Below are positions 36,744-64,000 of a DNA stretch of 64,000 bases, piece by piece. The DNA lies in contig CAZHAK010000003.1 of assembly GCA_964530625.1 (NCBI GenBank), forward strand, positions 35,476-99,475. The letters run 5' to 3'. The stretch is from an uncultured Alphaproteobacteria bacterium (GTDB taxonomy: Bacteria > Electryoneota > RPQS01). Positions within the stretch are counted from its first letter, which is position 1, and the number at the start of each line of letters is the position of its first letter. Under the pieces are notes generated by a model, which ran no database searches, had not been told where the DNA came from, and saw nothing but the letters and a program-made list of their open reading frames with translations. The translations under genes were made by a program, and so were the position numbers.

Positions 36744-36744
36744 C

Positions 36745-48200: not shown

Positions 48201-49807
48201 AACAGAGTTTTCTCATTCTAATATATTTTCTCTTCCTCGTGATGGCAATCGCAACCGGATGCCAGCAGGATGCTTCACAAACGAAGAAAGCGGAAAGCGA
48301 TAGCCATGCAGGTCATGAACACAATGGCCACGATGATCATGCGGGCCATGACGATCACGGGGGCCACGATCACGACGGTCATGCAGATGGTGAAAGCGTC
48401 GTCGTCGAGACGATTTGGCAGGATGGTTTGGAAATGTTCGGAGAGTGGCCTCCTTTCGAAGCGGGTCATAGCTCACGAGCAGTCTTGCACTTCACGAGTC
48501 TGGAATCTTTTCAACCCGCAACGGAAGGGCCGCTCACGATTAGCTGGCTTACCGGTGACGAGATCGTCAAGTCGCAAGTCGTTGAATCTGTTACACGCGC
48601 CGGAATCTTTATCGTTGACATCGCACCGCCTGCTGCCGGGACATATCGCCTGACGATGAGCTTGGCTTCTCCGCAAATGAGCGGAACCATCACTCTGCCT
48701 TTGGTGCGAGTCTTTGCGGATCATGCGCCACCTATAGCACTGAGCGGCCATGGCGAAGAAGAAATTTCATTCTTGAAAGAACAGCAGTGGATATTAGGCA
48801 CGAAGATCGAGAAAGTTGAGCGCAGAGATATTCACGACAATGTGCGCGCGCCCGGCGAGTTGAAACCTGCCGGTAACAAGACATCCGAAGTGTACGCTTC
48901 GTTTGCCGGAGTTCTGCTGCCCGACCCAACGAATGGAGCCGTTCGGCATGGCCAAACCGTGCGCAAGGGGCAAGCCCTGGCGATGATTTCACCTTCGCCT
49001 AATGCGGAGAACAGCTGGTACGAACTGCAAGGTGAGTATCGCTTGGCGAAAGCGGAGTTGGCCCGCGTTGAACGTCTATTTGATGAGAGCGCCGTTTCTA
49101 AACGAAGGTTGGAAGAAGCCCGCCAGTTACTAACTGTCAAGAGAGCACAATTGAACGCAGCGCTTGGCGGAGCTGAGCTGGAAGAAGAAGATGGCGAGGT
49201 GCCGTATTTTACGATTCGCTCGCCGCGTGATGGAGTTATCGCGGACCATGACGCGGCCTATGGCGCGTATGTCCATTCCGGTCAAAAGCTATTCAGCGTT
49301 GTCGACCCCGATATCGTGTGGCTGGACGTTCAAGTCGCCGCCGCGGATGTTCGCAACGAGCGCAATATCCGTAGCGCATACTTCCAGTTGAACGGAACCG
49401 AGCAGATTTATTCAACCGATCAGTTCGACGGAAAAGTCATCGCATCGGGAACCGTGCTCGATCCGCAGACGCGGCGTATTCCCGTGACGTTTGAACTGAA
49501 CAATTCCGACGGAGTGCTCCGCGTCGGAGAATTTGTTCAAGTGGATTTGCAAACTTCTGCCTCTCGAAACGCAGTCGTTGTGCCGAAAACTTCAATTGTC
49601 GAGGACGGCGGTGCGCCAGTCGCGTATGTTCAGACAGGCGGCGAGTCGTTTGAGCGGCGCATCGTGGTTACGGGAGCCACTGACGGCCCGTGGGTGGAAA
49701 TTCTCTCCGGAGTGAAAGTAGGCGAGCGAGTGGTCACGGCTGGTGCTTACAAAATTAAACTTGCAACGAGCAGTACCGGCGAAATCGGTCACGGCCATGC
49801 ACACTAA
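48197..49807 (+). CDS. efflux RND periplasmic adaptor with a His-rich N-terminal tract
   Basis: Lipobox-like AIATGC, HAGHEHNGHDDHAGHDDHGGHDHDGHADGE, HlyD-type core and C-terminal GEIGHGHAH. Confidence 0.9.
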   Translation: MKQSFLILIYFLFLVMAIATGCQQDASQTKKAESDSHAGHEHNGHDDHAGHDDHGGHDHDGHADGESVVVETIWQDGLEMFGEWPPFEAGHSSRAVLHFTSLESFQPATEGPLTISWLTGDEIVKSQVVESVTRAGIFIVDIAPPAAGTYRLTMSLASPQMSGTITLPLVRVFADHAPPIALSGHGEEEISFLKEQQWILGTKIEKVERRDIHDNVRAPGELKPAGNKTSEVYASFAGVLLPDPTNGAVRHGQTVRKGQALAMISPSPNAENSWYELQGEYRLAKAELARVERLFDESAVSKRRLEEARQLLTVKRAQLNAALGGAELEEEDGEVPYFTIRSPRDGVIADHDAAYGAYVHSGQKLFSVVDPDIVWLDVQVAAADVRNERNIRSAYFQLNGTEQIYSTDQFDGKVIASGTVLDPQTRRIPVTFELNNSDGVLRVGEFVQVDLQTSASRNAVVVPKTSIVEDGGAPVAYVQTGGESFERRIVVTGATDGPWVEILSGVKVGERVVTAGAYKIKLATSSTGEIGHGHAH

Positions 49808-49816
49808 GGGGGCCGC

Positions 49817-52800
49817 ATGTTTAATTATATAATTCGTAAATCGCTTGAAAAACGGTTTCACGTTCTATTGACCGCTTTAGCGATTCTGATTGCCGGAACG
49901 TACATCGCGCAGAAAATGCCGATTGATATTTTTCCAGAACTGACGGCTCCCACAGTGTCTGTACTCGCCGATGTTCATGGACTTGCGCCGGAAGAAATCG
50001 AAAATTTGGTCGCTTTCCCGATTGAATCGGCAATGAACGGAGCAACCGGCGTGCGCCGTGTGAGATCTTCCATCTCGGCGGGAATGGCAATTGTCTGGGT
50101 AGAATTTACGTGGGGTACCGACATCTTGCAGGCGCGTCAGATTGTGACGGAGAGATTGCAATCCGTCATGGGAAACTTGCCGCCTGACATGACGCCGCCG
50201 ATGCTTGCACCGATTGCCTCCATCATGGGCGAAGTAATGCTCATCAGTGTCCGCAGCGATTCGCTAAGCGGACCGGACTTGCGCTCGTATTCTGATAATG
50301 TTTTGCGCAAACGATTGCTGGCAATTCCCGGCGTCGCGCAAGTTGTTTCCATAGGGATGCAAGTTAAGCAGTATCAGATTATCGTTAAACCTGAGCAACT
50401 GCTCGCATATCACGTATCGCTCGAGGAAGTTTTGGAAGCCGCGCGGATGTCGAGCGAAAACACGACCGGCGGCTTTTTGATTCAGGGTGGGCAAGAGCAT
50501 TTGATTCGAGGCATCGGACGAGTGAAATCTGTTGATGACATCGGCAGAACAGTTGTTACGATGCGTGACGGCGCGCCCATTCTCATTGATCAAGTTGCCG
50601 ATGTGCGGATTGGCGGAAGCATTCCAACGGGAACGGCCTCCGTGCAAGGTAAGGATGCCGTCCTCTTGACCGTGCAAAAGCAGCCGGGCGCCAACACACT
50701 TGAACTGACTAAGCGTGTTGACATTGTGGCGGCGGAACTGCAAAAACTAGCGCCCGCCGATATCAAAGTTCGCACGGACGTTTTCCGGCAGGCAAGCTTT
50801 ATCGAGATCGCGGTTCGTAACGTAATGAACGCCTTGCGAGACGGTGCGATTTTGGTGACGATCATCCTGCTGCTATTTTTAGGAAATCTGCGAACGACGT
50901 TTATCAGCTTGTTGGCGATTCCCCTGTCCGTTGTGTTGGCGATTTTTGTCCTGAATTTGATGGGCAGTACGATCAACACTATGACCTTGGGTGGATTGGC
51001 GATTGCCATCGGCTTGCTTGTGGACGACGCGATCATTGACGTCGAGAACGTTTATCGGCGATTGCGGCTGAATGCGCTGAAACCCGCGGCAGAGCGTAAC
51101 TCTCGATTCGACGTTATCTACCGAGCCTCGCTCGAAGTGCGAAAGCCGATTGTCGTCGCGACGTTGATCATCATTGCCGTCTTCACTCCGTTGTTCTTTC
51201 TGTCCGGAGTTGAAGGCCGCTTACTAAGGCCACTTGGAGTCTCCTTCGTCATCTCCATTCTTGGATCACTGCTGGTCGCTGTCACGGTCGTGCCTGCGCT
51301 GTCCTATTATTTGTTGGGAAAGTTTAAGCAGCATCAAATTGAGCACGAGCCGTGGCTGGTTCGCAAGCTAAAGGCGCTTTATCGTCCGATACTGGACTTT
51401 GCTCTGAAACATGCTATGTCTGTTATCACGTTTTCCGTGCTGCTGTTGGTCGTGTCGGTCGTGCTCTATTCACGTTTCGGCCAAGCCTTTCTGCCCGAGT
51501 TTAACGAGGGTTCGCTGACGGTTATCTCTGTATCCCCACCCGGTACCTCGCTTCAGGAGTCGCATGAAATTGCTCGAATGATCGAGGAAATCGTAATGGC
51601 GCAACCCGGCGTGGCAAGCGTGGCCCGCCGCACCGGACGTGGCGAGTTGGATGAACACGCTCTGGGATCGAACGCGAGTGAAATGGAGGCTCGTCTTGAC
51701 GACGGTATTGACAAGGAACAATTGCTGGAAGAGTTGCGCAGTAAACTAACAATTGTGCCTGGTACCAATATCAGTTTGGGTCAGCCGATTTCGCATCGCA
51801 TTGATCATATGCTCAGCGGGACTCAAGCCGCCATCGCTGTGAAATTGTATGGCGATAATCTGACGGAACTGAGACGAACGGCGGATCTCATCAAAGAAGA
51901 GATGATGCAAGTCGACGGTATTGTTGATTTGGCGGTAGAGCCGCAAATCGAAGTTCCGCAGTTGCGAATCGAAATGAATCGGGAAGCAATGAGCCAATAC
52001 GGCGTCAGACCCGTGGAACTTGCTGAAGCAATTGAAACGGCTTTTAACGGACAAATTGTTGGTCGTGTCTTGGAAGGACAAAATGCGTACGACATGATTG
52101 TACGATACGATGAAAGCGCGAAAGCAGATACCGCGGCAATCGTCAGAACGCCGTTCCATACGTCTTATGGTCATTTTGTAATGCTGAGAGATTTGGCGAC
52201 GATTTACGCTTCCACCGGGCCGAACATGATCTCGCGCGAAAAAGTCAGCCGTAAAATTGTTGTCCAAGCGAACGTCGCCGGCCGAGACCTCGGGAGTGTC
52301 GTTCGTGACGTGCAGGATCGCGTGACCAAAAACGTAACGCTTCCGGAAGGATACTTTGTCTCCTATGGCGGCCAATTTGAAAGTGCTGAGAGTGCCAGCA
52401 GAATCATCGGACTCCTGACCGTATTAGCGATTGCTGCCATCTTTATGCTGCTGTTTTCTGAGTTCGGGAATTTCCGCGATGCGCTGTTGGTGATGGTGAA
52501 TCTGCCTTTGGCGTTGATCGGCGGCGTGTTTGCGATTGGTATGAGTGACGGCATTGTTTCCATTGCATCATTGGTCGGCTTTGTGACCCTGTTTGGGATT
52601 GCCGCACGTAACGGGATTCTCCTGATTTCACATTACCGCAATCTCATGCGCGATGAAAATCTGCCTTTACATGAAGCGGTTGTTCGCGGCAGTCTCGAGC
52701 GCATGAATCCGATCCTGATGACGGCGTTGTGCGCCGGATTGGCGCTGGTTCCACTTGCCGCTGCCGGAACTCAGCCGGGAAATGAAATCCAATCTCCGAT

Positions 52801-52900
52801 GGCTATTGTTATCTTGGGTGGACTCATGTCCTCTACTATACTGAATATGGTTGTCGTGCCGACTTTGTTTGCGCGATTCGGCAAACCCGAAGCACAGTAG
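49817..52900 (+). CDS. heavy-metal efflux RND pump (CzcA/CusA superfamily, second paralog)
   Basis: 1027 aa with RND architecture. Its TM4 motif GGLAIAIGLLVDDAIIDVENVYRR differs from that of the first pump. Confidence 0.9.
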   Translation: MFNYIIRKSLEKRFHVLLTALAILIAGTYIAQKMPIDIFPELTAPTVSVLADVHGLAPEEIENLVAFPIESAMNGATGVRRVRSSISAGMAIVWVEFTWGTDILQARQIVTERLQSVMGNLPPDMTPPMLAPIASIMGEVMLISVRSDSLSGPDLRSYSDNVLRKRLLAIPGVAQVVSIGMQVKQYQIIVKPEQLLAYHVSLEEVLEAARMSSENTTGGFLIQGGQEHLIRGIGRVKSVDDIGRTVVTMRDGAPILIDQVADVRIGGSIPTGTASVQGKDAVLLTVQKQPGANTLELTKRVDIVAAELQKLAPADIKVRTDVFRQASFIEIAVRNVMNALRDGAILVTIILLLFLGNLRTTFISLLAIPLSVVLAIFVLNLMGSTINTMTLGGLAIAIGLLVDDAIIDVENVYRRLRLNALKPAAERNSRFDVIYRASLEVRKPIVVATLIIIAVFTPLFFLSGVEGRLLRPLGVSFVISILGSLLVAVTVVPALSYYLLGKFKQHQIEHEPWLVRKLKALYRPILDFALKHAMSVITFSVLLLVVSVVLYSRFGQAFLPEFNEGSLTVISVSPPGTSLQESHEIARMIEEIVMAQPGVASVARRTGRGELDEHALGSNASEMEARLDDGIDKEQLLEELRSKLTIVPGTNISLGQPISHRIDHMLSGTQAAIAVKLYGDNLTELRRTADLIKEEMMQVDGIVDLAVEPQIEVPQLRIEMNREAMSQYGVRPVELAEAIETAFNGQIVGRVLEGQNAYDMIVRYDESAKADTAAIVRTPFHTSYGHFVMLRDLATIYASTGPNMISREKVSRKIVVQANVAGRDLGSVVRDVQDRVTKNVTLPEGYFVSYGGQFESAESASRIIGLLTVLAIAAIFMLLFSEFGNFRDALLVMVNLPLALIGGVFAIGMSDGIVSIASLVGFVTLFGIAARNGILLISHYRNLMRDENLPLHEAVVRGSLERMNPILMTALCAGLALVPLAAAGTQPGNEIQSPMAIVILGGLMSSTILNMVVVPTLFARFGKPEAQ

Positions 52901-52975: not shown

Positions 52976-54559
52976 TTAAAAACGATATCCCAGCGCGACA
53001 TTCATCAGCGTGACGTCGCGGCCATCGCCGAAGCCTTGCTCAAGCTCAAGCGAAGCATAGGTGCGTCGAGCCAAATCAAAATCGAACATCACGGCAAGCC
53101 ACTGTTGTGACACCGTTGTTGACGTCGTGTTCAATTCATAGTCGTTGGTTCCGCCTTCGACACCGACTCGCAGCCATGTCGCCGCTTCGCGTGAGACAAA
53201 AAGCGAAGGTTGTGTTCCCGTGCTGTACTGCGAATCAAACCAGCGGAATCGTGCAAATATAGAGATTGCGGAAGCGCCGAGACTAGTCGTGCCCAGCCTA
53301 AGCCAACCGCTCGTTGCTTGAGCTTTGTTTCCGTCTCTGTCGCGCAGACCAATTCCTGCTTCAGCAGTATACGATTTCCCAAATCGCGAGTCCAGACTTG
53401 CGCGAAAGCCCTGCCGTTGCGCGCTGTCGAAAAGGCTGTCCGGAATCGTGCGAGTTTCGGCAGTGTAGTAGTTTGTTCGGTTGTCATAGCCTAGTGAAAC
53501 GGATAACTCGCGCGCGAAACTGTAGCGCGCGTCCAACAGCACGGATGCAAGTGTGATGGACGACCCTTCTGCGTCTTTCAACCACCCCCGATTCAAATTG
53601 ATTTCCGTGCTTTCAAACAGCCGTAGCTTGCCGCCGGAAACAAATGAGAGTTGTTGATAGATGAACTCGCGGCTGACTTCACCCTTCAGATAGCGCCCGG
53701 CAAGCGATGCGGTGGTTTGCAAGGATTGTGAATTAGACAACTTCTGTTTGTAGGCAACGAATGCGCCGACTTTGGTCACGTCAGTTTGGATGCGCGTATT
53801 TTGTAAGTCCGGCTCGAGTCCGCCGACGGCGCCGAGTGCGAAACTGTGGTTCAAGTCGTACTTTACGTAGGCTCCGTCCAGATAGCCCATGCCGCGAGTT
53901 TCGCGACGCAGCACTCGTCCCGCGCCCGCCTGAATCGGCTTATCTTTAGGTTCGTAGGCGATGAGCGCCTCATAGATGCGATTTGTTGACGCGCTGCGAT
54001 CGTCACTTGCGCGCATTGTTCGGCGTAGTCTTAAATTTGTCCGTGCAGAGAAATCGCTTCCACCGATTCTTCTGAGCGAGGCGCGTAAGCTCATCGCAGG
54101 TTCGGTATAATCATAATTGACGGCTCCTTGATCATCCTGTATTGTGTACTCAACACCAATTCTGCCTGTCAGTTCATTGGCGTGTCCAATTGTGAACAGT
54201 TCTGTTTGTTGAGCATCTGTCGCTTGTACTGGCATTACTGTTTCGACTTCAGCAGGAACTGGAGCGGCGGATGTCTCAGCTCCAGAGGCGAACACCAGCG
54301 CCACATCGTCCCGCGCAATGATTCCGGCGAGATTCTTCATTTCACATGAAGAAGAATTCTCTGAGACAAAACTGACAATGATGCGAGCGAGTTCTGCTTC
54401 ACCGCGAGAAATGACTACCGAGTCACCAGGCGTAATTCCCGCTGCGCGGCCTGCAGAAAGATAAACCGTTGTCGCTGACACATATTGAACCGTAGTCTTG
54501 ATCTCAACGGCGAACGCTACAGAGATTGATGCAAGTAGAGCTATGAGTGATACTCTCAC
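52976..54559 (-). CDS. outer-membrane beta-barrel protein (candidate porin of the cytochrome cluster)
   Basis: Signal peptide MRVSLIALLASISVAFA and a ~95-aa N-terminal soluble domain. Then long alternating-pattern strands rich in Y/G/R. The terminal sequence ...VALGYRF has the aromatic last residue typical of OMPs. The GTGA start overlaps the upstream cytochrome stop. Confidence 0.7.
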   Translation of the reverse strand: MRVSLIALLASISVAFAVEIKTTVQYVSATTVYLSAGRAAGITPGDSVVISRGEAELARIIVSFVSENSSSCEMKNLAGIIARDDVALVFASGAETSAAPVPAEVETVMPVQATDAQQTELFTIGHANELTGRIGVEYTIQDDQGAVNYDYTEPAMSLRASLRRIGGSDFSARTNLRLRRTMRASDDRSASTNRIYEALIAYEPKDKPIQAGAGRVLRRETRGMGYLDGAYVKYDLNHSFALGAVGGLEPDLQNTRIQTDVTKVGAFVAYKQKLSNSQSLQTTASLAGRYLKGEVSREFIYQQLSFVSGGKLRLFESTEINLNRGWLKDAEGSSITLASVLLDARYSFARELSVSLGYDNRTNYYTAETRTIPDSLFDSAQRQGFRASLDSRFGKSYTAEAGIGLRDRDGNKAQATSGWLRLGTTSLGASAISIFARFRWFDSQYSTGTQPSLFVSREAATWLRVGVEGGTNDYELNTTSTTVSQQWLAVMFDFDLARRTYASLELEQGFGDGRDVTLMNVALGYRF

Positions 54560-56751
54560 TTCTGCACCTCTGCTTTTGTCGGCTGCACTCTGCGCGGCGG
54601 ATTTGTACGACGGTTGGGCCGCCCATCACCGTCGGGATGGCACTCAAAGCAAGATGTCGGTGTGTAAGCGTAACCGCCGACGTCTTCATGATCGTCGTCC
54701 ACGTCGCCTTGGTCGCTGTGTTCATGACACTCGATGCAACTGAACAAAATGAAACTGCCGTTTGTCGTGTGGCATTCGATGCATTGATTCCATTCATCAC
54801 GATGGCGGCCCGAGTAGATCGGGAAATGCTGCTGATCGTGATCGAATGTCGAGTTCCAGTTGTTCGTCGTATGACAGTCCACGCACTCTTGCGGGTAGCC
54901 GGCGTTGTGATCCGGTGACGCGCTATTGAAGTCCGATTGATGGCAGAACCAGCAGTCCGTCGGGGTGTTTTCAAACTGACCACCGACGTGACAAGCGAGA
55001 CAACTGACGGAAATATGAGCGCCGGTCAAGGGAAAGTCTGTGCCGTTGTGATTGAAGTCGCTATCCCAATCAGTCGTATTATGGCACTGTGAGCAATCGT
55101 GCGGATAGTTCGCTTGGACGTGATCGTCCGCGTCGTTGTAATCCGCTTCGTGGCATGACCAGCAGTCGGTTGGTGTGCCTGTGTATTGTCCGCCGATGTG
55201 GCACTGTGCGCAGTCTGTTTGGACATGTGCTCCTGTCAATGGAAAATTGGTCAATGCGTGATCAAACGTGGTCTCCGTCCAGTTGTCCGTGGAGTGACAA
55301 ACCGTGCAGGTATGCGGGTACATTTCTGTAGCGTGATTCGGATCCGTTGTGTTCGTGTAGTCTTGTTCATGGCAGGACCAACAGTCTGTAGGAGTGCCGG
55401 TGAACTGCCCGTTGATATGGCACTCAGCACAATCGATCAAGATATGCGCCCCGGTCAAGGGGAAGTCGGACAGGTTGTGATCAAACGTTGTTTCTGTCCA
55501 ATTGTTTGTGGAGTGACAGTCCGTGCACGTTTGCGGGTACTGTCCTGCCGCATGATCTGGATCCGTTGTCTCTGAATAATCGGTTTCGTGACAAGACCAG
55601 CAGTCTATCGGTGTTCCCGTGAACTGTCCGCCGGCATGACACTGCGCGCAATCAGTCTGAATGTGCGCACCTGTCAACGGAAACAGAGTCAGGTCGTGAT
55701 TCATAAATTCAGCGGGGCGCCATGCCGTTGTGGTGTGACACTGATCACATGCATTTGGAAACGCGTTACCCGTGTGAGTGGGATTTGTTGCTGATGTATA
55801 ATCCGTTGAATGGCAGTCGACACATACGGTTGTCGTTCCCGTGTATTGTCCGCCGACGTGGCATTGCGCGCAGTCCGTTTGCACATGTGCGCCCGTCAAC
55901 GGAAAGGAAGTCTGGTTGTGATTTTCAAATTGCGCGGGCCGCCACGCCGTGGTAGTGTGACACTGTTCGCATGTATTCGGGAATGCGGATTCGTCGTGGG
56001 TTGGATTTACCGCTGTTGTGTAATCTGTCGAATGGCACTCAATACACGCGCCGCCTGTGTTCGCAAATCCTGACGTGTGACAGGCTTGACAGTCGTTCAA
56101 CGCGTGCCCGCCTGTCAAGGGAAAGGCTTGCGGATGCGAGAACGCTGCATTCTTCCATTGCGCCACCGTTACATCGTGACATTCGCTGCAAGTCCTTGAG
56201 AAACCTGCGTTCAAATGATTCGGATTTGTTGTGCCCGCGAACTCAGCGGCATGGCAGCTTCCACAGTCCGTGGCAAGCGCCGTATATTGACCCGTCGCAT
56301 GACAGCTTTGACAATCGAGCGTGCCATGAACACCGATCAAGGGCATGCGCGTCGTCTCGTGCAGTCTGCGAAAGTGTCCGTCGTCGGCCCACTGAATCGG
56401 TGTATGGCACTCGCTGCAATTTGCCGAAAACTGTCCGCGATGGACGTCGGTGTGGCAATCCAGGCACTCACTACCCGCGTCGCTGAACACGAGAGACGTA
56501 TGGCACGAGATACAAGCGACGTTCGAGTGCCGTCCCACCAGTGGATACTGGGTTTGCGTCTCATGTGAAAACTCCATTTCAGTTCGCAACTGCTTCCAGC
56601 CGGCAGTCGAGTGGCACTGCTGACAATCCAACGTCAGTTTGCCGTGCGGAGACTCCAACGCAGCTTCAGTGCTGACGCAAATCGTAAGCATTGTAAGGCA
56701 AAGAGGCAGAAACAAACGCGCGCGAAGTAGCTTAACGAGTATATGTCTCAT
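54556..56751 (-). CDS. multihaem c-type cytochrome, 28 CxxCH motifs
   Basis: Signal peptide. I counted 28 CxxCH in 731 aa. It is built from ~70-74-aa tandem modules, each starting (F/Y/M)PL(T/V/I)G.H. Confidence 0.9.
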   Translation of the reverse strand: MRHILVKLLRARLFLPLCLTMLTICVSTEAALESPHGKLTLDCQQCHSTAGWKQLRTEMEFSHETQTQYPLVGRHSNVACISCHTSLVFSDAGSECLDCHTDVHRGQFSANCSECHTPIQWADDGHFRRLHETTRMPLIGVHGTLDCQSCHATGQYTALATDCGSCHAAEFAGTTNPNHLNAGFSRTCSECHDVTVAQWKNAAFSHPQAFPLTGGHALNDCQACHTSGFANTGGACIECHSTDYTTAVNPTHDESAFPNTCEQCHTTTAWRPAQFENHNQTSFPLTGAHVQTDCAQCHVGGQYTGTTTVCVDCHSTDYTSATNPTHTGNAFPNACDQCHTTTAWRPAEFMNHDLTLFPLTGAHIQTDCAQCHAGGQFTGTPIDCWSCHETDYSETTDPDHAAGQYPQTCTDCHSTNNWTETTFDHNLSDFPLTGAHILIDCAECHINGQFTGTPTDCWSCHEQDYTNTTDPNHATEMYPHTCTVCHSTDNWTETTFDHALTNFPLTGAHVQTDCAQCHIGGQYTGTPTDCWSCHEADYNDADDHVQANYPHDCSQCHNTTDWDSDFNHNGTDFPLTGAHISVSCLACHVGGQFENTPTDCWFCHQSDFNSASPDHNAGYPQECVDCHTTNNWNSTFDHDQQHFPIYSGRHRDEWNQCIECHTTNGSFILFSCIECHEHSDQGDVDDDHEDVGGYAYTPTSCFECHPDGDGRPNRRTNPPRRVQPTKAEVQK

Positions 56752-58439
56752 GGTTGTGAGAGAGTTGTTCCGCCGTGACAGTCACTACACGCGGAAGGGA
56801 GGGGACGATATATTACGTAGCTGCCTTCAGAGTCGGGGTGACTCTTGTGGCAGGAGTTGCAAGCGACGTTTTGATGTGCGCCATCAAGCGTCCAACGCGA
56901 ATCGCGATTGTGATCGAATGTGAGAATGTTCCATGCTTCCGGCGTGTGACAGCGCTGGCAATCATTGGTGACAGCTTCCGCCGAATCTAAAACGAATTGT
57001 CCGCGGTGCGGATCAGCGTGACAGAGTTCGCATTGCCGCGCTAACGGTGACATGCGAATCAGCTCCGATTCCGTGCCAACATTTTCGCGGACATGACAGC
57101 CCACGCAAGCAGTTTGGTCATGTCTTCCGACTAAGGGGAATCTCGTGGAGTCGTGGTTGAACGTCACTTGACGCCAGCTCTCCACGTTGTGGCAGAATTC
57201 GCAGCCCCCGCTTTGCGTATAACTGTCAAGCTGTCCACGGTGTACATCCGAGTGACAACCTTTGCAGCTCTGATCTGCGAAATTAAATCGCGCGTATTGA
57301 CCAAGCTTGTCAGAAAGTTCCGATGCGTGACAGGCGATGCAGGGAATCGCCAAGTGGCTGCCCGCGAGCGGAAACTTCGATTTCCCATGTTCAGCAATAC
57401 CATACCGCGCCGGTACAAATCCATCCACGGTGTGACATGACTCGCAAGCTCCCTTATCCACTCGGTCGGCAAACTGACTCCGATGCCGGTCTTTGTGACA
57501 GTCTTTGCACGCGGTATGGGAGAGCGGATCTGTCATCTTTCCGGATGTATGACACTTCACGCACTGTACGCCAACGTGCCTTCCAGTCAGTGGAAAGTCT
57601 GTCTTATTATGATCAAAGTCCGTGGCCATGCGCGCCACCGCGAAACTTTCCGTCGTGTGGCATCCAGCGCAGTTCGATCCGAATTTGCCTTTGTGAATGT
57701 CGTTATGGCACGACTTGCAAGTTGAAAAGTCAAGGCCTTGATAGGTTGTTCGTAAAAGGGGATGACTCGGATCCGGAATGCGATTGGCCACAGCCTCTGT
57801 AACCTGTTCAGCCTTATGACACTTTGCGCATTCCACGCGAGAATGCTTTCCCGTCAACGGATACTTGGATTTGTCATGGGAAAATAACGAAGCAGGAATC
57901 CATTTGTCCGCGTTATGGCAGGACGCACAGTCATTCGTCAATTGTTCAGCATGCTCGTCAGCGTGACACGATATGCAGTCCGGCGTAAGTCCGAGTAACG
58001 TTTCTGCGCTGCTTGTCGTTGAATCAAACGCGATCGCAAGACTGTTGTGATAAGCGGGAATATGACATGCCTGACACTTTTGCTTAGCATGCGCGCCCAC
58101 CAGCGCGTATCCCGTCAGCGAATGGTTAAACTTGTCCTGACCGTCATTCCAATAGACTAACTCAAAGTCGCGGCCAAAGTGCTCGCCGTGACACTTTGCG
58201 CAGCGCTGCGATTTCACCTCGGCGCTTGCATGATAGCCTTTATCCTCCTGCACTCTTTGGCCAATTGCGGTATGGCAGGATAGACATTTTGCGTCCGTCA
58301 CTTCCTCGCCCAAAACATGACACTGCGTACAATTGTTCAGCCCCTCAAGGTGCGCATGATAACGCGACAAATCGCCGGGTGAGATTTGCGCGGAAAGAGT
58401 CGACGCGAACGTAACTAAGGCGAGCCAGACAGTGCGCAT
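56748..58439 (-). CDS. multihaem c-type cytochrome, 20 CxxCH motifs
   Basis: Signal peptide MRTVWLALVTFASTLSAQ. 20 CxxCH in 563 aa. Same (F/Y)PL.G.H module logic. Confidence 0.9.
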   Translation of the reverse strand: MRTVWLALVTFASTLSAQISPGDLSRYHAHLEGLNNCTQCHVLGEEVTDAKCLSCHTAIGQRVQEDKGYHASAEVKSQRCAKCHGEHFGRDFELVYWNDGQDKFNHSLTGYALVGAHAKQKCQACHIPAYHNSLAIAFDSTTSSAETLLGLTPDCISCHADEHAEQLTNDCASCHNADKWIPASLFSHDKSKYPLTGKHSRVECAKCHKAEQVTEAVANRIPDPSHPLLRTTYQGLDFSTCKSCHNDIHKGKFGSNCAGCHTTESFAVARMATDFDHNKTDFPLTGRHVGVQCVKCHTSGKMTDPLSHTACKDCHKDRHRSQFADRVDKGACESCHTVDGFVPARYGIAEHGKSKFPLAGSHLAIPCIACHASELSDKLGQYARFNFADQSCKGCHSDVHRGQLDSYTQSGGCEFCHNVESWRQVTFNHDSTRFPLVGRHDQTACVGCHVRENVGTESELIRMSPLARQCELCHADPHRGQFVLDSAEAVTNDCQRCHTPEAWNILTFDHNRDSRWTLDGAHQNVACNSCHKSHPDSEGSYVIYRPLPSACSDCHGGTTLSQP

Positions 58440-58442
58440 TGC

Positions 58443-59027
58443 TTACGGATGAGTTGCAGGCTTTAGTTTAGGCAGCGCCCCGCGCGCGTACAGCGCGAGC
58501 GTGTCCTGCGGATGCAGCTGAATCAATTCAGCCCAGCTTTCACGCGCTGCGTCGTAATTGCCGCGATTAGCTTCTATTGCTCCCAAGTTGTAGAGCGCAC
58601 CTGCGTGACCCGGATGATCTCTTAACATTATCTTCAGCTCGCCGATGGCTTCGTCTGTGCGGCCGAGCGATGCAAGCGAGCGACTGATGTCCAACCGAAC
58701 AAGCCAGCCTTGCCTTGTTGTATCTGTCTTTAGGAATTCACGATAAAACTCAATTGCCTTTTCAAATTGGCCAGATGTGAAGTATAGATTTGCAAGTTCG
58801 AGCGCTATCGGACCATGCCCCGGAGCCGACTTCCACATCTCGAGCATTTGCTCCAAGGCCGGCTTCGCTGTCTGAGTGTGCTCGCGTGACATGGTTTCAA
58901 AACTCTGATCGCCACCCGACTGCGGAGCAGAATAGAGCCACACCAGCAATGCAGGAATAGCAAGCAACGCTATCGCAAACACCACGCGCGTTCTCTTCTG
59001 AGATGTTTGCGGAGACCCGTTACTCAT
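58443..59027 (-). CDS. membrane-anchored periplasmic TPR repeat protein
   Basis: KRTR followed by the TM helix VVFAIALLAIPALLVWLY, then TPR-like repeats (ANLYFTSGQFEKAIEFYREFL, ASLGRTDEAIGELKIML, GAIEANRGNYDAARESWAELI). Confidence 0.8.
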   Translation of the reverse strand: MSNGSPQTSQKRTRVVFAIALLAIPALLVWLYSAPQSGGDQSFETMSREHTQTAKPALEQMLEMWKSAPGHGPIALELANLYFTSGQFEKAIEFYREFLKTDTTRQGWLVRLDISRSLASLGRTDEAIGELKIMLRDHPGHAGALYNLGAIEANRGNYDAARESWAELIQLHPQDTLALYARGALPKLKPATHP

Positions 59028-59030
59028 AGA

Positions 59031-60341
59031 TTAGGCGGATCCAAATTTACGCTCAAATTCAATCCCGATACTCTGCAAGAATTCCGTTGGCAGCACGCCG
59101 CCGATCAAAACAAACACTTGGTCGTTTGTTAGCGTGACTTCTGTGCCCGCTTGATCAAGTACCACTCGCGCAGATTCAATCTGAGTCACATTGGAATTCA
59201 GGAGCAGCGTGACGCGCCCTTCTTCCACGGCTTTTTCGAGTCGCTCGCGATTGCCTTCCTTGATGCGGAAGATTTTATCTCCGCGATATGACAGATGTAC
59301 GGTATTGCCCGCTTGAGTTGAAAGAGCCGTCGCCGCTTCGACCGCGCTGTCACCGCCACCCACGACGAGAATCTTCTTGTGATGATACTTTGCGGGATCA
59401 AGCAGGCGGTAAGTTACCTTGTCGCGCTTTTCACCCGGACAACCAATTTTGCGCGGCGTTCCCCTGCGGCCAATAGCGAGCAATACCTTGCGCGTGACAT
59501 ACTCACCGCCCGAGGTCGTCACTTTGAAATGACCGTTCGTGCGTTCGATACTGATAACGCGTTCACCTTCGTGAATGTCTAGGTCATGTTTCCGCACGAC
59601 ATCGGACAACAGCTGCAGTAAAGGTTCCTTCTCAACCTCTCGCAGCTTCACCGTTCCATGAATCGGAAGCTCCATCGGTTGAAGCATGACGATCTTTTGG
59701 CGAGGATACGTGAAAATTGTCCCACCCAAATCATCCTGATCAACCGTCACATAGTGTAAACCCTGCTTTTTCGCTTGCAACGACGCTGAAATTCCGGCGG
59801 GGCCTGCGCCTACGATGACAAGATCAAGTGCTTCACCAACACGATCTATTTCAATTTGTTTGGAAAGATTTTCAACAGCCTGCCGTCCTTGCGAAACAGC
59901 GTTGCGAATCAAACCCATCCCGCCGAGCTCGCCCGCGATAAATACACCGGGCACATTGGTTTCAAATGTTCCTTTGACGTGCGGAATATCCACGCCGCGC
60001 TGTTCGGTGCCGAACACGAGCGTAATCGCATCCACCGGGCAGGCGCGTTGACACTCTCCGTGACCAATGCAGCGCGCCGGATTTACCAGCGCGGCCTTGC
60101 CATTAATCATTTGCAGAATGCCTTGCTCCGGACAAGCCTTGGTACAGGAGCCTGAGCCGATACAAACATCTGCATCAATCACCGGATGCAGTGAAACAGG
60201 TTGATCGAGTCCGGCCAGTGTGGACTGCTCCAATATAGTAGCCGCTCGTACGCTGCTCTTGCGCGCTCTTAATATGTAGAGTACCGGGAGTCCAACGACC
60301 AACATGCCAGTGACAACATAGATCAGTGTCTCAAGACTCAT
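59031..60341 (-). CDS. membrane-anchored ferredoxin-domain / FAD-NAD(P)-binding oxidoreductase (thioredoxin-reductase-like)
   Basis: N-terminal TM helix followed by RARK. Two Fe-S motifs, CIGSGSCTKACP and CIGHGECQRACP. Dinucleotide folds VIVGAGPAGISASL and ILVVGGGDSAVEAA. Confidence 0.85.
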   Translation of the reverse strand: MSLETLIYVVTGMLVVGLPVLYILRARKSSVRAATILEQSTLAGLDQPVSLHPVIDADVCIGSGSCTKACPEQGILQMINGKAALVNPARCIGHGECQRACPVDAITLVFGTEQRGVDIPHVKGTFETNVPGVFIAGELGGMGLIRNAVSQGRQAVENLSKQIEIDRVGEALDLVIVGAGPAGISASLQAKKQGLHYVTVDQDDLGGTIFTYPRQKIVMLQPMELPIHGTVKLREVEKEPLLQLLSDVVRKHDLDIHEGERVISIERTNGHFKVTTSGGEYVTRKVLLAIGRRGTPRKIGCPGEKRDKVTYRLLDPAKYHHKKILVVGGGDSAVEAATALSTQAGNTVHLSYRGDKIFRIKEGNRERLEKAVEEGRVTLLLNSNVTQIESARVVLDQAGTEVTLTNDQVFVLIGGVLPTEFLQSIGIEFERKFGSA

Positions 60342-60342
60342 G

Positions 60343-61203
60343 TCAGAAAATCCATGTGTAACCGAGTGTGACGGCGACCACGATATGCACCACCATGATA
60401 ATCAGCATAATGACGGCGAACGGTTTATGAAAAACGTGCCAGTGGTGGAGCAGTTTGCGCGCTGTCACCAAAAAAGCAATTCGGCGATCCAACGTAGCGC
60501 GTCTACGAGCGAGTGACACCAGATGCTTCGCGTCGTGCGCGGACAGCCCGGCGTCCTTCTGAAGGTTTGATTTCAATGCGCTGTAGCGGAGAATCGCGGT
60601 CATATCACGCATCAGCCACGTCATCATTCCTGCGCCTGCGTGGACGCTCTCGTTGGCAAACTCTTCAAGCAAATCAAGCGCCTTCGGATTGCCGCCTGCT
60701 TCCGCTGACAGTTGCGAGCGCACTTTGCTTTCGAGTTCCTGGAGTTCTGTCGCAGACATTTCCTCGCCGCTCAAGCTGCGCGGAATTTGCACATAAATAT
60801 ATCTTCCCACAACGCCACTTAGAGCGACTGCAATCATTGACCAAAAGGACACCGCGACAATTCCGCCGAACTTAAAGCTCGTATGAAACAGCACCAGTAT
60901 CGGCCCGGTCACGCCCATCCAGATGTGATAATTCAGCCAATAGCGGATGTCACCCCAGCCTTGCTGCATCGGGCGCCAACGCTTGCGCAAAGAGTACAGC
61001 AACATGATCACCATCAACGCGCTGCCCACGATGCCTGCGCCGTGCCCGATAAATCCGGACGGCTTCCACTCTTCATGCAAGTCATGTCGAGCGCGCTCCT
61101 GCATGGACAGCGCGTAATATTCGCTGCCGCCGTACGCGAGATAGACTGTCGCCAGCACGGTTAAGCTGTATAAAAATATGAGACTTAGACGATGCAATGA
61201 CAA
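60343..61203 (-). CDS. 5-TM membrane protein with two H-x13-H pairs (putative dihaem b-type electron carrier)
   Basis: TM3 YHIWMGVTGPILVLFHT (H93/H107) and TM5 FHKPFAVIMLIIMVVHIV (H259/H273). A ~110-aa charged loop separates TM4 and TM5. TTG start, uncertain. Confidence 0.65.
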   Translation of the reverse strand: MSLHRLSLIFLYSLTVLATVYLAYGGSEYYALSMQERARHDLHEEWKPSGFIGHGAGIVGSALMVIMLLYSLRKRWRPMQQGWGDIRYWLNYHIWMGVTGPILVLFHTSFKFGGIVAVSFWSMIAVALSGVVGRYIYVQIPRSLSGEEMSATELQELESKVRSQLSAEAGGNPKALDLLEEFANESVHAGAGMMTWLMRDMTAILRYSALKSNLQKDAGLSAHDAKHLVSLARRRATLDRRIAFLVTARKLLHHWHVFHKPFAVIMLIIMVVHIVVAVTLGYTWIF

Positions 61204-61235
61204 AGATATTCAGGGCAAAGACAAAGATATTCAGG
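61199..61235. promoter_or_regulatory. two 16-nt direct repeats phased 21 nt apart at the 5' end of the membrane-protein gene
   Basis: gacaaagatattcagg occurs at 61199-61214 and 61220-61235 (minus strand cctgaatatctttgtc x2), abutting the TTG start. Confidence 0.5.
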
Positions 61236-61600
61236 CGAAGTTAGTAGCAGATAAACTACGACTTTGTGGCTGTTTTTGCAACTGTTTACGGCATCAGATT
61301 ACATTATTGCTGCGCAAAGAAACGTCGCCGTTCGACACAGATATTGTCTTCAACATCCTATTTCAAATGCCGTGCCTGCCACTGAAGCCATAAATTTCAA
61401 AAGATCCACAATACTCCCGTATTCTCACCTAATTTCATAGGGAATTTAGGCGTTCGATTGCTCAATGCCTGTTTGTTGTAGTATGAACTGTGGCCTCGGC
61501 GCCTCATGCGACATTGAGTGTACAATTTGTCAAAGTGCAAAGTCAATAAGAAACCCGAACATATTATCCGGGCTTCCTGCTTTATGGTGTTTATGCAAAT

Positions 61601-62824
61601 CTACTTGTCGCGATGGCAACGCACACATAACGCGCGGTCAGCAGACGCTATCATCAAAGGTTCTGCCGTCCAAGCATGCAGATCATGGCAACTCATGCAA
61701 CTCAGTGGACCACCGCGCACAGGATCAACCAACTCCGGACCCATGGGATGCGCGCCATGATGCTCGTGCTTATGACATTCGACGCATAGCTCTGCAGCAG
61801 GTTTGGTCAAATAACCCGCATTCTCATTGCCATGCGGATCGTGGCATTTCGCGCACGCGTATTTTGCGTGAGGATTGTCGCCGACGGTTTCCACACCCTT
61901 TGACGGATCGTGACATCTGACGCACAGATGTTTCGGCGCGGCGCTGAGCAAACTCTTCTGATCCGCTGCGTGAGGATTGTGGCACATCTCGCAAGCATTA
62001 TCTTCCGTCGCACCGTGCGGCATGTGTTTCGCAAAATGCTCGCCTTCGCTTTCGTGACAGTCACTGCAAACAGACTGAACGGAAGCCTTGAGCGGAAATG
62101 CGCCGCCAACTTGAGCCGCTACGTGACATGCCGCGCAGTCGTTATCGTCGAATGGAGCGTGTTTGTTACTCATCACTAAACCGGGCGCGTCACTTGCATG
62201 AGGATCGTGACATGCCGAGCAGCGCGAACCGATCGGGTCAAAGCTGGCGTGCCGTTCGCGCAACTTCGATTCGTTTCCGTGGCAGGTCATGCACAAGTCG
62301 CTGGTGTTCTTGGTCAATAAGTTGTCGAGGTCGCTGCCGTGAACGTCGTGGCACTTGTAACACTGTCCCACGCGCGCCGGCGCATGTACATTTGATCTCG
62401 CCAACCAATCCCGCACTTCCGTGTGGCAGGTCGCGCATAGCTCCTTGCTTGGCGCATTGAGCAGATTGTTATAATCCGACGCATGAGGATTGTGACAGCG
62501 CGTACATTCACCGCTTTCCACAGGAGCATGTTGATGCGACCTCTGCCGCCATTTTGCAGTTTCTTCGTGACAGCTTGCGCACATGGATCCTTCGCGATCC
62601 ACCAGCAGTTTCTCATGACGCGACGCGTGCGGCGCGTGGCAGGCGCTGCATTCACCGGAATTAAACGGCCCGTGAACGTCCGACTTGTTAAACTCCGTCT
62701 TGATGTCGTCATGACACTCGAGGCACGCGTTGTGCTGGTCAACTTTCGGCAACTCTTTTGCAAACAAGAGTGCGAAGCATGTGAGCGCAAAGGCGGCGAG
62801 CAGAATGAATACGCGGCGCTTCAT
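61601..62824 (-). CDS. multihaem c-type cytochrome, 16 CxxCH motifs
   Basis: Signal/anchor MKRRVFILLAAFALTCFALLFA. 16 CxxCH in 407 aa. Alternating CxxCH.PH(A/G)(S/N) and CxxCH(E/D) motifs (doubled-CXXCH style). Confidence 0.9.
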   Translation of the reverse strand: MKRRVFILLAAFALTCFALLFAKELPKVDQHNACLECHDDIKTEFNKSDVHGPFNSGECSACHAPHASRHEKLLVDREGSMCASCHEETAKWRQRSHQHAPVESGECTRCHNPHASDYNNLLNAPSKELCATCHTEVRDWLARSNVHAPARVGQCYKCHDVHGSDLDNLLTKNTSDLCMTCHGNESKLRERHASFDPIGSRCSACHDPHASDAPGLVMSNKHAPFDDNDCAACHVAAQVGGAFPLKASVQSVCSDCHESEGEHFAKHMPHGATEDNACEMCHNPHAADQKSLLSAAPKHLCVRCHDPSKGVETVGDNPHAKYACAKCHDPHGNENAGYLTKPAAELCVECHKHEHHGAHPMGPELVDPVRGGPLSCMSCHDLHAWTAEPLMIASADRALCVRCHRDK

Positions 62825-64000
62825 CTATTGACTCCTTCCGGTACGGCCACGTGGCAGGAAGCGCAATCACCCGATTCAAACGGCGCATGTTGGTTATTCA
62901 TAAGTAGTCTATCAATGTTTGATCCGTGCGCGTCGTGACACATTGCGCAGTTTATCGCGACTCCGTCCTGATTCAAGTGCGAGGCGCGAAACTCCGGCGT
63001 ATCCGTGTTGTGGCAATCCAAACACAGACCTGGTATCGCGTCAGTCAAGAGCGCCTTGTGTTTGCTCGTGTGCGCCGTATGACAATTCAAACACTCACCA
63101 GCGTTCGCGGGCGGATGTGAGAACGTCGCGTTGCGCGCGCTGTCAATGTCCGCATGACACGTAATGCAAAGGTGCGCCGCTCCGGCCAACAATAAGTTCT
63201 TGTTCGCGCTTTGGTGCGGATCGTGACAGGCCGTGCATTTTCCGTCGGCCACCGGCTGATGTACCGACGTCGCCGTCTTGATGGCGTCGGTGATATCCGA
63301 ATGGCACTCGCCACATGTCGCGGCGGTGGAATTCGTCAATAAACCGTCGTGATTTGAAGCGTGCGCCTGATGGCAATCCAAACACGCGCCATCCACAAAC
63401 GGAGGATGTACGGTGTTCCGTTCGTCCAACTTCATCGTCACAGAATGACAATCCGCGCAAAGTGAGTTGTCCGTGTCGCTCAGTAAGTGTTCGTGCTTCC
63501 CGCCGTGAACGTCGTGGCAGCTTCCGCATTCGCCGCGCAAGAAAGGCTGATGAACATCCTTCTTCGCAAACGAAGACTTCAAATCATCGTGGCAATCCAG
63601 ACACATGTCGCCTTGCCGCTTCAGCAGCAGACCTGCGCGATTCGTGCCGTGAGGATCATGACAGCTCCAACATTTCCCCATGGTGACCGCCGAGTGCGTC
63701 ACAGGTTGCTGAGTCGCCAGCTTGATGTCTTCATGGCACTGTAAACACTGGTCGTTGGATTTCGACTTGAGCAGTTTATCATTCGAGTTGCCGTGACCGT
63801 CATGACACGTCGTGCAGGCGTCACGGGCTGCTGAATGACCGTTAGCCAGTTTGGTCTTGTCAAGCTCTGTCGAGTGGCACTCACCGCAAACCTTCGCGTC
63901 GTCCGCCTTCAACAATGCCTCGGCGTGAGTGGTGTGTGGGTTATGGCATTCTATGCAACATTCGCTTTGTACTGGAGCGTGAGTCAAGTCTCCGTGTTTC
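62821..64000 (-). CDS. multihaem c-type cytochrome (C-terminal part; gene continues past the window end), at least 16 CxxCH
   Basis: The frame is open to position 64000, so the ORF-track Met at 63987 is an internal TTG. 16 CxxCH in the visible 393 codons, with the same doubled-CXXCH pattern. ATGA overlap with the next gene. Confidence 0.9.
   Translation of the reverse strand, partial: KHGDLTHAPVQSECCIECHNPHTTHAEALLKADDAKVCGECHSTELDKTKLANGHSAARDACTTCHDGHGNSNDKLLKSKSNDQCLQCHEDIKLATQQPVTHSAVTMGKCWSCHDPHGTNRAGLLLKRQGDMCLDCHDDLKSSFAKKDVHQPFLRGECGSCHDVHGGKHEHLLSDTDNSLCADCHSVTMKLDERNTVHPPFVDGACLDCHQAHASNHDGLLTNSTAATCGECHSDITDAIKTATSVHQPVADGKCTACHDPHQSANKNLLLAGAAHLCITCHADIDSARNATFSHPPANAGECLNCHTAHTSKHKALLTDAIPGLCLDCHNTDTPEFRASHLNQDGVAINCAMCHDAHGSNIDRLLMNNQHAPFESGDCASCHVAVPEGVNR

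Follow-up and report, generated by a model that had tools for sequence, protein, structure and literature searches.

A candidate NAD(P)H-fed trans-envelope cytochrome conduit of the PCC3 type in an Electryoneota genome

The candidate conduit locus

Near the end of a 64,000-nucleotide stretch of DNA from an uncultured bacterium of the GTDB lineage Electryoneota (RPQS01; NCBI GenBank assembly GCA_964530625.1, contig CAZHAK010000003.1, forward-strand positions 35,476 to 99,475), a compact set of minus-strand genes encodes multihaem c-type cytochromes together with an outer-membrane barrel, a ferredoxin-flavoprotein and a histidine-paired inner-membrane protein (IMP). This whole stretch is called the window here, and all coordinates are positions within it. 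Six of the genes form a probable operon, four of whose products reproduce the parts of the porin-cytochrome cluster that He et al. named PCC3 (PMC5566968). The reading favoured for the six, at a probability of roughly one half, is that NAD(P)H feeds electrons into a PCC3-type conduit, through a split module that works like an NADPH oxidase (NOX), and that these electrons flow outward across the whole cell envelope.

Listing and translation of the open reading frames (ORFs) returned the eight minus-strand genes that an earlier, sequence-only reading of this DNA had reported, at the same coordinates. In the direction of transcription, the genes and the features between them are:

62821..64000, minus strand: ~26-haem Paired_CXXCH cytochrome, C-terminal 392 codons; 16 CxxCH in the window, no start
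61601..62824, minus strand: 16-haem Paired_CXXCH cytochrome, 407 aa; eight Paired_CXXCH_1 units, 7e-77
61578-61548, then 61546-61517, minus strand: terminator-like hairpin of 14 pairs, then a promoter-like site; consensus matches only
60343..61203, minus strand: IMP, 286 aa, TTG start; predicted di-haem-b transmembrane electron wire
59031..60341, minus strand: membrane-anchored ferredoxin-flavoprotein, 436 aa; predicted N-terminal transmembrane (TM) helix, two-cluster Fe-S domain and two Rossmann domains
58443..59027, minus strand: predicted inner-membrane-anchored periplasmic tetratricopeptide repeat (TPR) protein, 194 aa; TM helix 15-33, preceded by KRTR
56748..58439, minus strand: 20-haem cytochrome c, 563 aa, Sec signal peptide; 20 CxxCH, 28.1 aa per haem
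54556..56751, minus strand: 28-haem cytochrome c, 731 aa; 28 CxxCH, 26.1 aa per haem, 13% Thr
52976..54559, minus strand: predicted outer-membrane β-barrel, 527 aa, signal peptide, ending in ...GYRF; from AlphaFold2 and Foldseek

The haem-binding motifs number 28 in the 731-aa, 20 in the 563-aa and 16 in the 407-aa protein, with a further 16 in the part of the last ORF that lies inside the window, in agreement with the minimum counts of 16, 16, 20 and 28 given in the sequence-only reading. Its floor of 80 haem sites stands for the window and becomes a total of about 90 over the four cytochromes once the part of the last ORF beyond the window end is included. The motifs occur once per 24-28 residues, in strict triplet or doublet periodicity, which is far beyond chance.

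Packing of the genes is tight, with 4-nt overlaps at 54556-54559, 56748-56751 and 62821-62824, 3-nt gaps at 58440-58442 and 59028-59030, and a 1-nt gap at 60342. A gap of 397 nt (61204-61600) parts the six-gene block from the two upstream cytochrome genes, and within it the hairpin and promoter-like site (61517-61578) likely mark the boundary between two transcription units. The six genes from 60343-61203 down to 52976-54559 would make up one operon, in which the overlaps suggest translational coupling; this wording replaces the co-translation that had earlier been read from the same packing. Relatives of the locus were sought in one genome per species (185,579 species genomes, 318 loci), and synteny was read by ORF calling and phmmer in the best 80 of these loci. 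Because they are missing from most related loci and lie behind the terminator-like hairpin, the 16-haem and ~26-haem cytochromes are set apart as what appears to be a separate, non-conserved, lineage-specific unit. The single unit of eight genes proposed from the sequence alone gives way to a six-gene operon and an upstream pair.

The proposed inner-membrane entry module

The public gene call for the IMP (P0001) places its start 15 codons after the TTG at 61203 and is 271 aa long. Homologues align from the TTG (MSLHRLSL...), so that the 286-aa form is probably the right one. Across 35 homologues the invariant positions are W89-x3-H93-x13-H107 in TM3, S129-G130-x2-G133 in TM4 and W255-x3-H259-x13-H273 in TM5, which make up the signature described for the IMPs of PCC3 and PCC4 (PMC5566968); two further invariant histidines, H253 and H256, lie at the cytoplasmic membrane interface. 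An AlphaFold2 model (predicted local distance difference test, pLDDT, 88) has five membrane helices and a helical insert of ~110 aa (residues ~140-250). By the positive-inside rule the N terminus, the TM2-TM3 loop and the insert would be cytoplasmic and the C terminus outside, with H93/H259 near the inner face and H107/H273 near the outer face, an arrangement that would suit two stacked b haems. Weak similarity to di-haem cytochrome b families recurs among the homologues and supports the main reading, with sub-threshold Pfam matches to Ferric_reduct in 19 of 35 members (E<=0.01) and to DUF4405 in 23. The IMP belongs to a large family, for which searches gave 3344 clusters at 90% identity and 4034 at 50%. 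The 120 best matches listed per search come from FCB bacteria or Sphingomonadales, those of the second search from Sphingomonadales only, and the closest members are called "hypothetical" wherever a source names them. Apparent fusions of the IMP with the flavoprotein (P0357, P0360, P0380, P0387, P0402 and an 809-aa ORF in L064) were considered as Rosetta-stone evidence and rejected; these long hits resemble frameshift, read-through or chimeric calls with low-complexity junk.

The ferredoxin-flavoprotein matches Pfam Pyr_redox_3 (1.4e-45) and Fer4_10 (3e-12), the latter a 4Fe-4S-type ferredoxin domain, and its predicted FAD and NAD(P)H Rossmann domains are of the class of thioredoxin reductase (TrxR), YpdA and TrxR-type ferredoxin-NADP+ reductase (FNR). 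The nearest solved structure is that of YpdA/Bdr (7a7b, 6e-30). Identity as a YpdA/Bdr bacillithiol disulfide reductase or a thioredoxin reductase is ruled out by low family scores (173 against TIGR04018 for YpdA/Bdr, cut-off 340; 92 against TrxR, cut-off 343) and by the missing catalytic cysteine: GPAG replaces the GPCG of the YpdA active site, no CxxC is found in the protein, and the sole Cys301 is not conserved. In 56 orthologues the six Fe-S cysteines, H94, both GxGxxG/A motifs and the triplet S351-Y352-R353, which follows the second Rossmann strand, are invariant. The TM helix is kept in 53 of these 56 and is followed by RARK in the window protein, the bulk of which would, by the positive-inside rule, be cytoplasmic. 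Because the dinucleotide and Fe-S motifs are invariant while the catalytic cysteine and CxxC are missing, the protein is taken to be a probable NAD(P)H-type dehydrogenase with an Fe-S relay of its own, and not a disulfide reductase.

Both Fe-S motifs of the flavoprotein (residues 60-101) deviate from the classic C-x2-C-x2-C-x3-CP. The second reads C-x2-H-x2-C-x3-CP, with histidine at the second position in 56 of 56 orthologues, and the variable position of the first is serine in the window, cysteine in 33 orthologues and serine or threonine in 21. Judging by these deviations, one end of the relay may hold a cluster that is His-ligated or of the 3Fe type.

Quinol dehydrogenases of the NapC/NirT/CymA/NrfH, NrfD, CbcL and ImcH types were absent from the cluster at curated thresholds, where there was also no match of the cytochrome b/HydC type; generic haem motifs gave only weak matches to the NrfH model (at most 41 bits, cut-off 134). 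No quinol dehydrogenase was found within 10 kb beyond position 64000 either. The sequence-only reading had seen no canonical quinol oxidase in the cluster and had proposed the flavoprotein and the His-paired membrane protein as the inner-membrane entry module. Comparative genomics supports that proposal, which is adopted here because the two genes are obligately linked in permuted order, because no quinol dehydrogenase accompanies them, and because distant relatives of the IMP have independent partners.

Conservation and distant relatives

A recurring block made up of the IMP, the flavoprotein, a 17- or 20-haem cytochrome, a large cytochrome of 16-67 haems and the barrel is present in most of the best 80 loci, often with a separate 8-12-haem cytochrome as well. 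Its hosts belong to Calditrichota, Marinimicrobia, Zixibacteria, KSB1, Fidelibacterota, Delongbacteria, Electryoneota, Krumholzibacteria and some Acidobacteriota. Wherever a locus is complete, with both cytochromes and the barrel, the flavoprotein is also encoded (38 of 38 loci; two seeming exceptions proved to be ORF-calling artefacts). Its gene is found in one of three places, ahead of the IMP gene, behind it or behind the barrel gene, and this permutation points to selection for linkage rather than to inherited gene order.

A complete conduit is also carried by the 100-kb plasmid pEMTOL02 of Emticicia oligotrophica DSM 17448 (L082, NC_018749.1:78197-89995). Besides the IMP, the flavoprotein and the barrel, it has cytochromes of 23 and 40 haems. 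The gene immediately before it is a fused ccsA, for cytochrome biogenesis, and annotation of the conduit genes goes no further than hypothetical, NAD(P)-binding and cytochrome c3 family proteins. Emticicia oligotrophica is a cultured, aerobic isolate of the Bacteroidota and is convenient for experiments. A further locus occurs in a metagenome-assembled genome (MAG) assigned to Caldithrix abyssi, and Caldithrix abyssi itself is probably a second cultured carrier.

More distant relatives of the IMP, encoded on plasmids of Proteobacteria, are homologous to the window IMP by hhalign (probabilities 99.5% and 97.9%). In all six plasmid contexts examined, the IMP relative lies directly downstream of a gene for an unrelated or rearranged FAD/NAD and Fe-S protein. 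In Alteromonas, Methylophaga, Roseomonas and Acetobacter this partner is a plant-type FNR (FAD_binding_6/NAD_binding_1 where scanned) with a 2Fe-2S domain or protein; in Legionella it is known by annotation alone, as an "FAD-binding oxidoreductase"; and in Sphingobium it is a protein with Pyr_redox, cNMP-binding and 4Fe-4S parts, homologous to the window flavoprotein. A gene for a c-type cytochrome of 7-10 haems lies directly downstream of the IMP relative in at least four of the six. That unrelated dehydrogenases have been recruited to one and the same protein speaks for a cytoplasmic pyridine-nucleotide dehydrogenase as the electron donor of the IMP, as in NOX/FRE enzymes.

Five of these plasmids (L083, L084, L086, L088 and L089, from Alteromonas, Methylophaga, Legionella, Roseomonas and Acetobacter) carry a compact three-gene module, composed of an FNR-type flavoprotein with 2Fe-2S, an IMP homologue of ~250 aa and, where checked or recorded, a 7-haem or c3-family cytochrome c. 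Often it has a [NiFe] hydrogenase as its neighbour or lies inside a resistance island for copper or metals, and the RefSeq name of the Legionella IMP is "iron reductase". The module is not known to have a characterised function.

Cytochromes, barrel and TPR protein of the proposed conduit

The 20-haem cytochrome is built of triheme repeats of ~74-89 aa, and orthologues with 20 haems occur in 48 loci, those with 17 haems in 13. Like the 28-haem protein, it matches only generic multihaem families (Pfam, including cytochrome c7/c3, and NCBIfam), and it has no solved homologue by sequence. It is proposed to be the wire that spans the periplasm, the counterpart of the "periplasmic MHC" (multihaem cytochrome) of PCC3, its periplasmic location being suggested by the signal peptide only.

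About eight tandem triheme repeats of ~73 aa form the 28-haem protein, whose relatives carry 16-67 haems with a median of 28. Residues ~472-711 align with the separate 8-12-haem cytochrome that is encoded before the barrel gene in 16 related loci; by this alignment, the small cytochrome appears as a fused part of the 28-haem protein in the window. The 28-haem protein is proposed to be the barrel-threading, outward-facing wire that corresponds to the "extracellular MHC" of PCC3.

The barrel protein consists of an N-terminal β domain (residues 18-91), a disordered linker (93-124) and roughly 22 antiparallel strands (129-526) in an AlphaFold2 model made from a 15-sequence alignment (pLDDT 76). 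It matches no Pfam family. A Foldseek search with the model gave 289 PDB matches at E<=1e-3, all of them transmembrane barrels (FimD/PapC ushers, AlgE and porins among them). That the 527-aa protein is an outer-membrane barrel had been named beforehand as a point on which the sequence-only reading could fail, and model and matches alike give a transmembrane barrel. The N-terminal β domain is well predicted, and the linker of ~30 residues is rich in Ala, Pro and Thr; the domain could serve for docking on the periplasmic side or as a plug.

The TPR protein matches TPR_16 and TPR_14 at ~1e-16 and, weakly, TPR_CcmH_CycH (5.5e-4). It is possibly a scaffold or a helper in cytochrome maturation, and it does not belong to the conserved part of the block, a homologue having been found in 10 of 80 related loci.

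Proposed electron path and alternative explanations

The entry module is envisaged as a split NADPH oxidase/ferric reductase that would bypass the quinone pool. A precedent is E. coli Fre-MsrQ, where a cytosolic NAD(P)H reductase feeds a membrane protein of the ferric reductase domain (FRD) type (PMC12525009). The membrane-anchored flavoprotein would oxidise NAD(P)H at its FAD on the cytoplasmic side, and electrons would pass through its two Fe-S clusters, one with the invariant histidine in a ligand position, to the cytoplasmic-side b haem (H93/H259) of the five-helix IMP. They would cross the membrane to the periplasmic-side b haem (H107/H273) and pass into the 20-haem cytochrome, whose length is sufficient to bridge the periplasm. 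From there they would move to the 28-haem cytochrome, whose C-terminal part of ~10 haems probably threads the ~22-strand barrel, and on to an extracellular or surface acceptor, for example a metal oxide, humic material or a partner cell.

Movement of electrons outward through a transmembrane haem pair runs with the membrane potential, and inward movement runs against it. Outward flow is favoured here because the membrane potential would help it, because reduction of NAD(P)+ from Fe(II) is uphill, and because no coupling device is visible. Since outward electrons are helped by the membrane potential and spend it, the role of the conduit would most likely be electron disposal that regenerates NAD(P)+ and not proton-pumping respiration. 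Such a role fits the largely heterotrophic or fermentative host lineages.

Several observations weigh against this reading and keep its probability near one half. The IMP scores 24.9 bits (E 2.3e-5) against Pfam Ferric_reduct (PF01794), below the curated cut-off of 28. It had no PDB match by Foldseek or by a profile search of PDB sequences that included NOX and STEAP, and hhalign gave a probability of 0.1% against the single E. coli MsrQ sequence and no match to E. coli YodB. None of these comparisons gave fold evidence that the IMP is like NOX, STEAP or MsrQ; "FRD-like" is a tentative label suggested by motifs and weak similarity, and the statement that the IMP works like part of a split NOX is better supported than the statement that it is a member of the FRD family. 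Related di-haem cytochrome b families (Ni_hydr_CYTB, the cytochrome b of bc1) react with quinones. Neither a lipobox nor a type IX secretion system (T9SS) signal is evident on the 28-haem protein, so that an extracellular position of either cytochrome is a matter of prediction, and the direction of flow is a purely thermodynamic argument. Later papers regard PCC3 as functionally unverified, and the PCC3 genes of Sideroxydans ES-1 are not induced by Fe(II) (PMC8788666).

The alternative to be taken most seriously, though it is rather unlikely, is that the IMP exchanges electrons with the quinone pool and that the flavoprotein is a side branch, for instance one that supplies a second input, serves as a regulatory or repair reductase or connects to ferredoxin. 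To our knowledge, all characterised Gram-negative conduits are quinol-fed. Among 35 IMP members, the sub-threshold Pfam matches to DUF4405 (23/35) and Ni_hydr_CYTB (4/35) fall in di-haem cytochrome b families with quinone-reactive members; the extra invariant H253 and H256 at the cytoplasmic interface, histidines without an assigned role, count on the same side, and a quinone-active IMP was favoured by He et al. (PMC5566968). A mere side branch fits poorly with the occurrence of the flavoprotein in every complete locus in permuted position, and with the three NAD(P)H-flavin-FeS architectures that adjoin homologous IMPs in Proteobacteria. The conserved cytoplasmic helical domain of the IMP (~110 aa) resembles, in the model, a docking platform, and for MsrQ itself the idea of a quinone donor has been reconsidered in favour of Fre (PMC12525009). 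Less probable again is a conduit that runs inward, with the cytoplasm as the destination of electrons drawn from a cathode, a partner cell, reduced minerals or extracellular Fe(II) or Mn(II). Multihaem wires are reversible, in Sideroxydans CL21 one PCC3 copy has an inner-membrane gene that rose along with iron-oxidising activity, and PCC3 was first found in Fe(II)- and Mn(II)-oxidising Proteobacteria (PMC5566968); in strain ES-1, however, the PCC3 genes are down-regulated on Fe(II) (PMC8788666). Inward transfer through a transmembrane di-haem wire would also oppose the membrane potential, the reduction of NAD(P)+ (about -320 mV) from Fe(II) would be strongly uphill with no coupling site visible in the cluster, and most host lineages are described as heterotrophs or fermenters.

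Least probable of the three is that the genes serve neither respiratory nor electron-disposing extracellular electron transfer (EET) and encode an NAD(P)H reductase that handles or detoxifies metals, acting on Cu(II), Fe(III), other metals or oxidants in the periplasm or on the cell surface in the manner of the eukaryotic ferric or cupric reductases FRE/STEAP. The operon does adjoin two heavy-metal-type resistance-nodulation-division (RND) systems and a P-type ATPase with a metal-binding domain in the window, several of the proteobacterial triads lie in copper or metal resistance islands with genes for multicopper oxidase, CopB and P-type ATPase, and the RefSeq name of the Legionella IMP would suit such a role. 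RND adjacency is seen, however, in just 6 of 80 related loci, a 48-haem chain with a dedicated barrel far exceeds what a periplasmic metal reductase needs, and the small triads are without a barrel, so that their role may differ from that of a full conduit.

The NAD(P)H-fed, outward conduit is preferred to these alternatives for the locus in the window. The generalisation that a widespread conduit class of the FCB group, which has smaller relatives without a barrel in Proteobacteria, draws its electrons straight from cytoplasmic NAD(P)H and bypasses the quinone pool is a possibility advanced more tentatively, at somewhat less than an even chance. If true, it would describe a conduit that is fed by NAD(P)H, unlike the quinol-fed systems of Shewanella (Mtr) and Geobacter, and in which the membrane potential assists electron disposal. 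It would alter the modelling of electron disposal, energy yield and redox balance in abundant uncultured lineages of sediment, sludge and oxygen-minimum zones, among them Calditrichota, Marinimicrobia, Zixibacteria and KSB1. It would also give a concrete, testable function to the "conserved hypothetical" IMP of PCC3 and PCC4, with its more than 4000 clusters at 50% identity, and would revise the PCC3 model used in iron-oxidiser genomics. The cultured carriers, Emticicia oligotrophica DSM 17448 with its plasmid and probably Caldithrix abyssi, make the variant testable now.

Upstream cytochromes and flanking regions

The 407-aa, 16-haem cytochrome, missing from most of the 80 related loci, scores below the cut-offs of the DmsE and GSU2203 models. 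The full ORF of the ~26-haem cytochrome can be read on an identical public contig (L001, Logan assembly; 6311-8338), where it gains 10 more CxxCH motifs and a hydrophobic N-terminal signal or anchor segment. Just beyond position 64000, on the minus strand of the window and so directly upstream, the same contig (L001:1-9558) holds a second, conduit-like gene set with a cytochrome of at least 3 CxxCH and a barrel-like protein of 694 aa, which ends in RF and belongs to no Pfam family. Two lipoproteins (GNA1162-like and FlgO-like) and a PpiC-type rotamase are encoded there as well, followed by the ~26- and 16-haem cytochromes. The combination of a rotamase with doubled-CXXCH cytochromes is tentatively likened to the Uet cluster of Ca. 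Tenderia.

On the other side of the operon, an island in the style of metal-resistance loci occupies window positions 32168-52900 on the plus strand. Its main features are:

35367-41506, plus strand: OEP / HlyD (heavy-metal-binding domain) / AcrB set of RND type
42997-45231, plus strand: P-type ATPase with heavy-metal-binding domain
46953-52900, plus strand: second OEP / HlyD (heavy-metal-binding domain) / AcrB set of RND type

The island also encodes a Cache/HAMP sensor kinase, a sigma-54 response regulator and a zinc-type alcohol dehydrogenase. Given the low frequency with which an RND system adjoins the conduit among related loci (6/80), a functional tie between the two was dropped, and their adjacency is regarded as a local coincidence or a feature of the clade.

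Comparison with known systems

Membership of the Mtr, Pcc and Ext systems was rejected at curated thresholds. The barrel scores 14.6 bits against the MtrB/PioB model TIGR03509 (cut-off 240); against DmsE/MtrA (TIGR03508, cut-off 192) the 20-haem protein scores 60.7, the 28-haem protein 44 and the upstream Paired_CXXCH proteins 160 and 183; and scores against the OmcA/MtrC models are below their cut-offs. The best score against the Geobacter GSU2203 decahaem model NF041028 is 208 bits (cut-off 325) and belongs to a non-conserved upstream cytochrome only, the ExtN and ExtO models give ~20 bits against 200, and barrels of the OmbB type have no model in the libraries used. Nitrite, sulfite, hydroxylamine and tetrathionate reductases, Hmc and Nrf were likewise rejected, the matches being generic multihaem ones and the HmcA, NrfB and NrfH equivalogs scoring far below their cut-offs. 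What the cluster has in common with MtrCAB, MtoAB and PioAB of Shewanella, Sideroxydans and Rhodopseudomonas is the plan of a barrel that sheathes a multihaem wire, with periplasmic and outward-facing cytochromes. The Mtr-type barrel has 26 strands and its cytochromes are decahaems, whereas roughly 22 strands and cytochromes of 20 and 28 haems in triheme repeats are predicted here. Mtr is fed by the quinol dehydrogenase CymA.

With NOX, FRE and the Fre-MsrQ pair of E. coli (PMC12525009) the proposed entry module shares a cytosolic NAD(P)H-flavin dehydrogenase that feeds a membrane protein with bis-His b-haem sites spread over two helices, which in turn passes electrons to a periplasmic or external acceptor. 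The dehydrogenase of those systems is a plant-type FNR, whereas that of the window is of the TrxR/YpdA class and carries a two-cluster ferredoxin domain; their acceptors are O2, Fe(III) chelates or MsrP, in place of a 48-haem chain; and the window IMP is distinguished by five helices and a cytoplasmic helical insert. A homologous or motif-sharing IMP beside an Fe-S/flavin protein, together with a periplasmic multihaem cytochrome, is also found in PCC4 subgroup II, in the "MHC + IMP + redox protein" clusters of He et al. (2017) and in the plasmid triads. The triads differ in having no barrel gene alongside, cytochromes of 7-10 haems and other reductase folds, and PCC4 as described has a porin but no extracellular cytochrome (PMC5566968).

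The flavin-based EET of Listeria (Ndh2-DMK-EetAB-PplA) offers another likeness, as a proposed NADH-oxidising route by which fermentative organisms dump electrons outside. It differs in depending on demethylmenaquinone (DMK), in its Gram-positive setting, and in having no cytochromes, no barrel and no components homologous to those of the window.

The closest described relative remains PCC3, defined in 2017 by He et al. in the genomes of iron oxidisers and other Proteobacteria, with examples in Sideroxydans (Slit_0867-0870 and Slit_1446-1449), Leptothrix and others (PMC5566968). Its parts are a porin, an extracellular cytochrome with a median of 34 haems, a periplasmic cytochrome with a median of 21 haems (21-27), and an IMP of ~300 aa with five helices, SGxxG on helix 4 and W-x3-H-x13-H on helices 3 and 5 (PMC5566968). 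He et al. likened this IMP to ferric-reductase domains, guessed it to be quinone-active and proposed inward flow for iron oxidation (PMC5566968). The porin of L. cholodnii PCC3 is predicted to have 22 TM strands, and roughly 22 are predicted for the barrel of the window. Both systems have a repetitive periplasmic-type cytochrome, with ~21 haems there and 20 here at ~26-28 residues per haem, and a larger, repetitive cytochrome, rich in Thr, Ser, Ala and Gly there and in Thr here, with 10-63 haems there, 28 in the window and 16-67 in its relatives; the window IMP reproduces the signature exactly, with SGxxG on TM4 and W-x3-H-x13-H on TM3 and TM5. On this evidence of published description, motifs and haem numbers the window cluster is assigned by architecture to the PCC3 type. 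The sequence-only reading was right to see a trans-envelope multihaem cluster with a real barrel, and its view that the gene content matches no described EET system is withdrawn, since the four core components reproduce PCC3.

As described, PCC3 consists of four genes and is hosted by Proteobacteria; the variant of the window adds the obligatory ferredoxin-flavoprotein (38/38 loci) and, in the close clade, the TPR protein, and it is hosted by FCB-group phyla. A flavoprotein is not mentioned in the PCC3 literature examined, and neither the variant in FCB phyla nor any multihaem conduit that is fed by NAD(P)H or independent of quinones turned up in a non-exhaustive literature search. The kind of conduit itself has been predicted since 2017, and what is new here is the obligatory ferredoxin-flavoprotein of the NAD(P)H type and the spread of the system across the FCB phyla.

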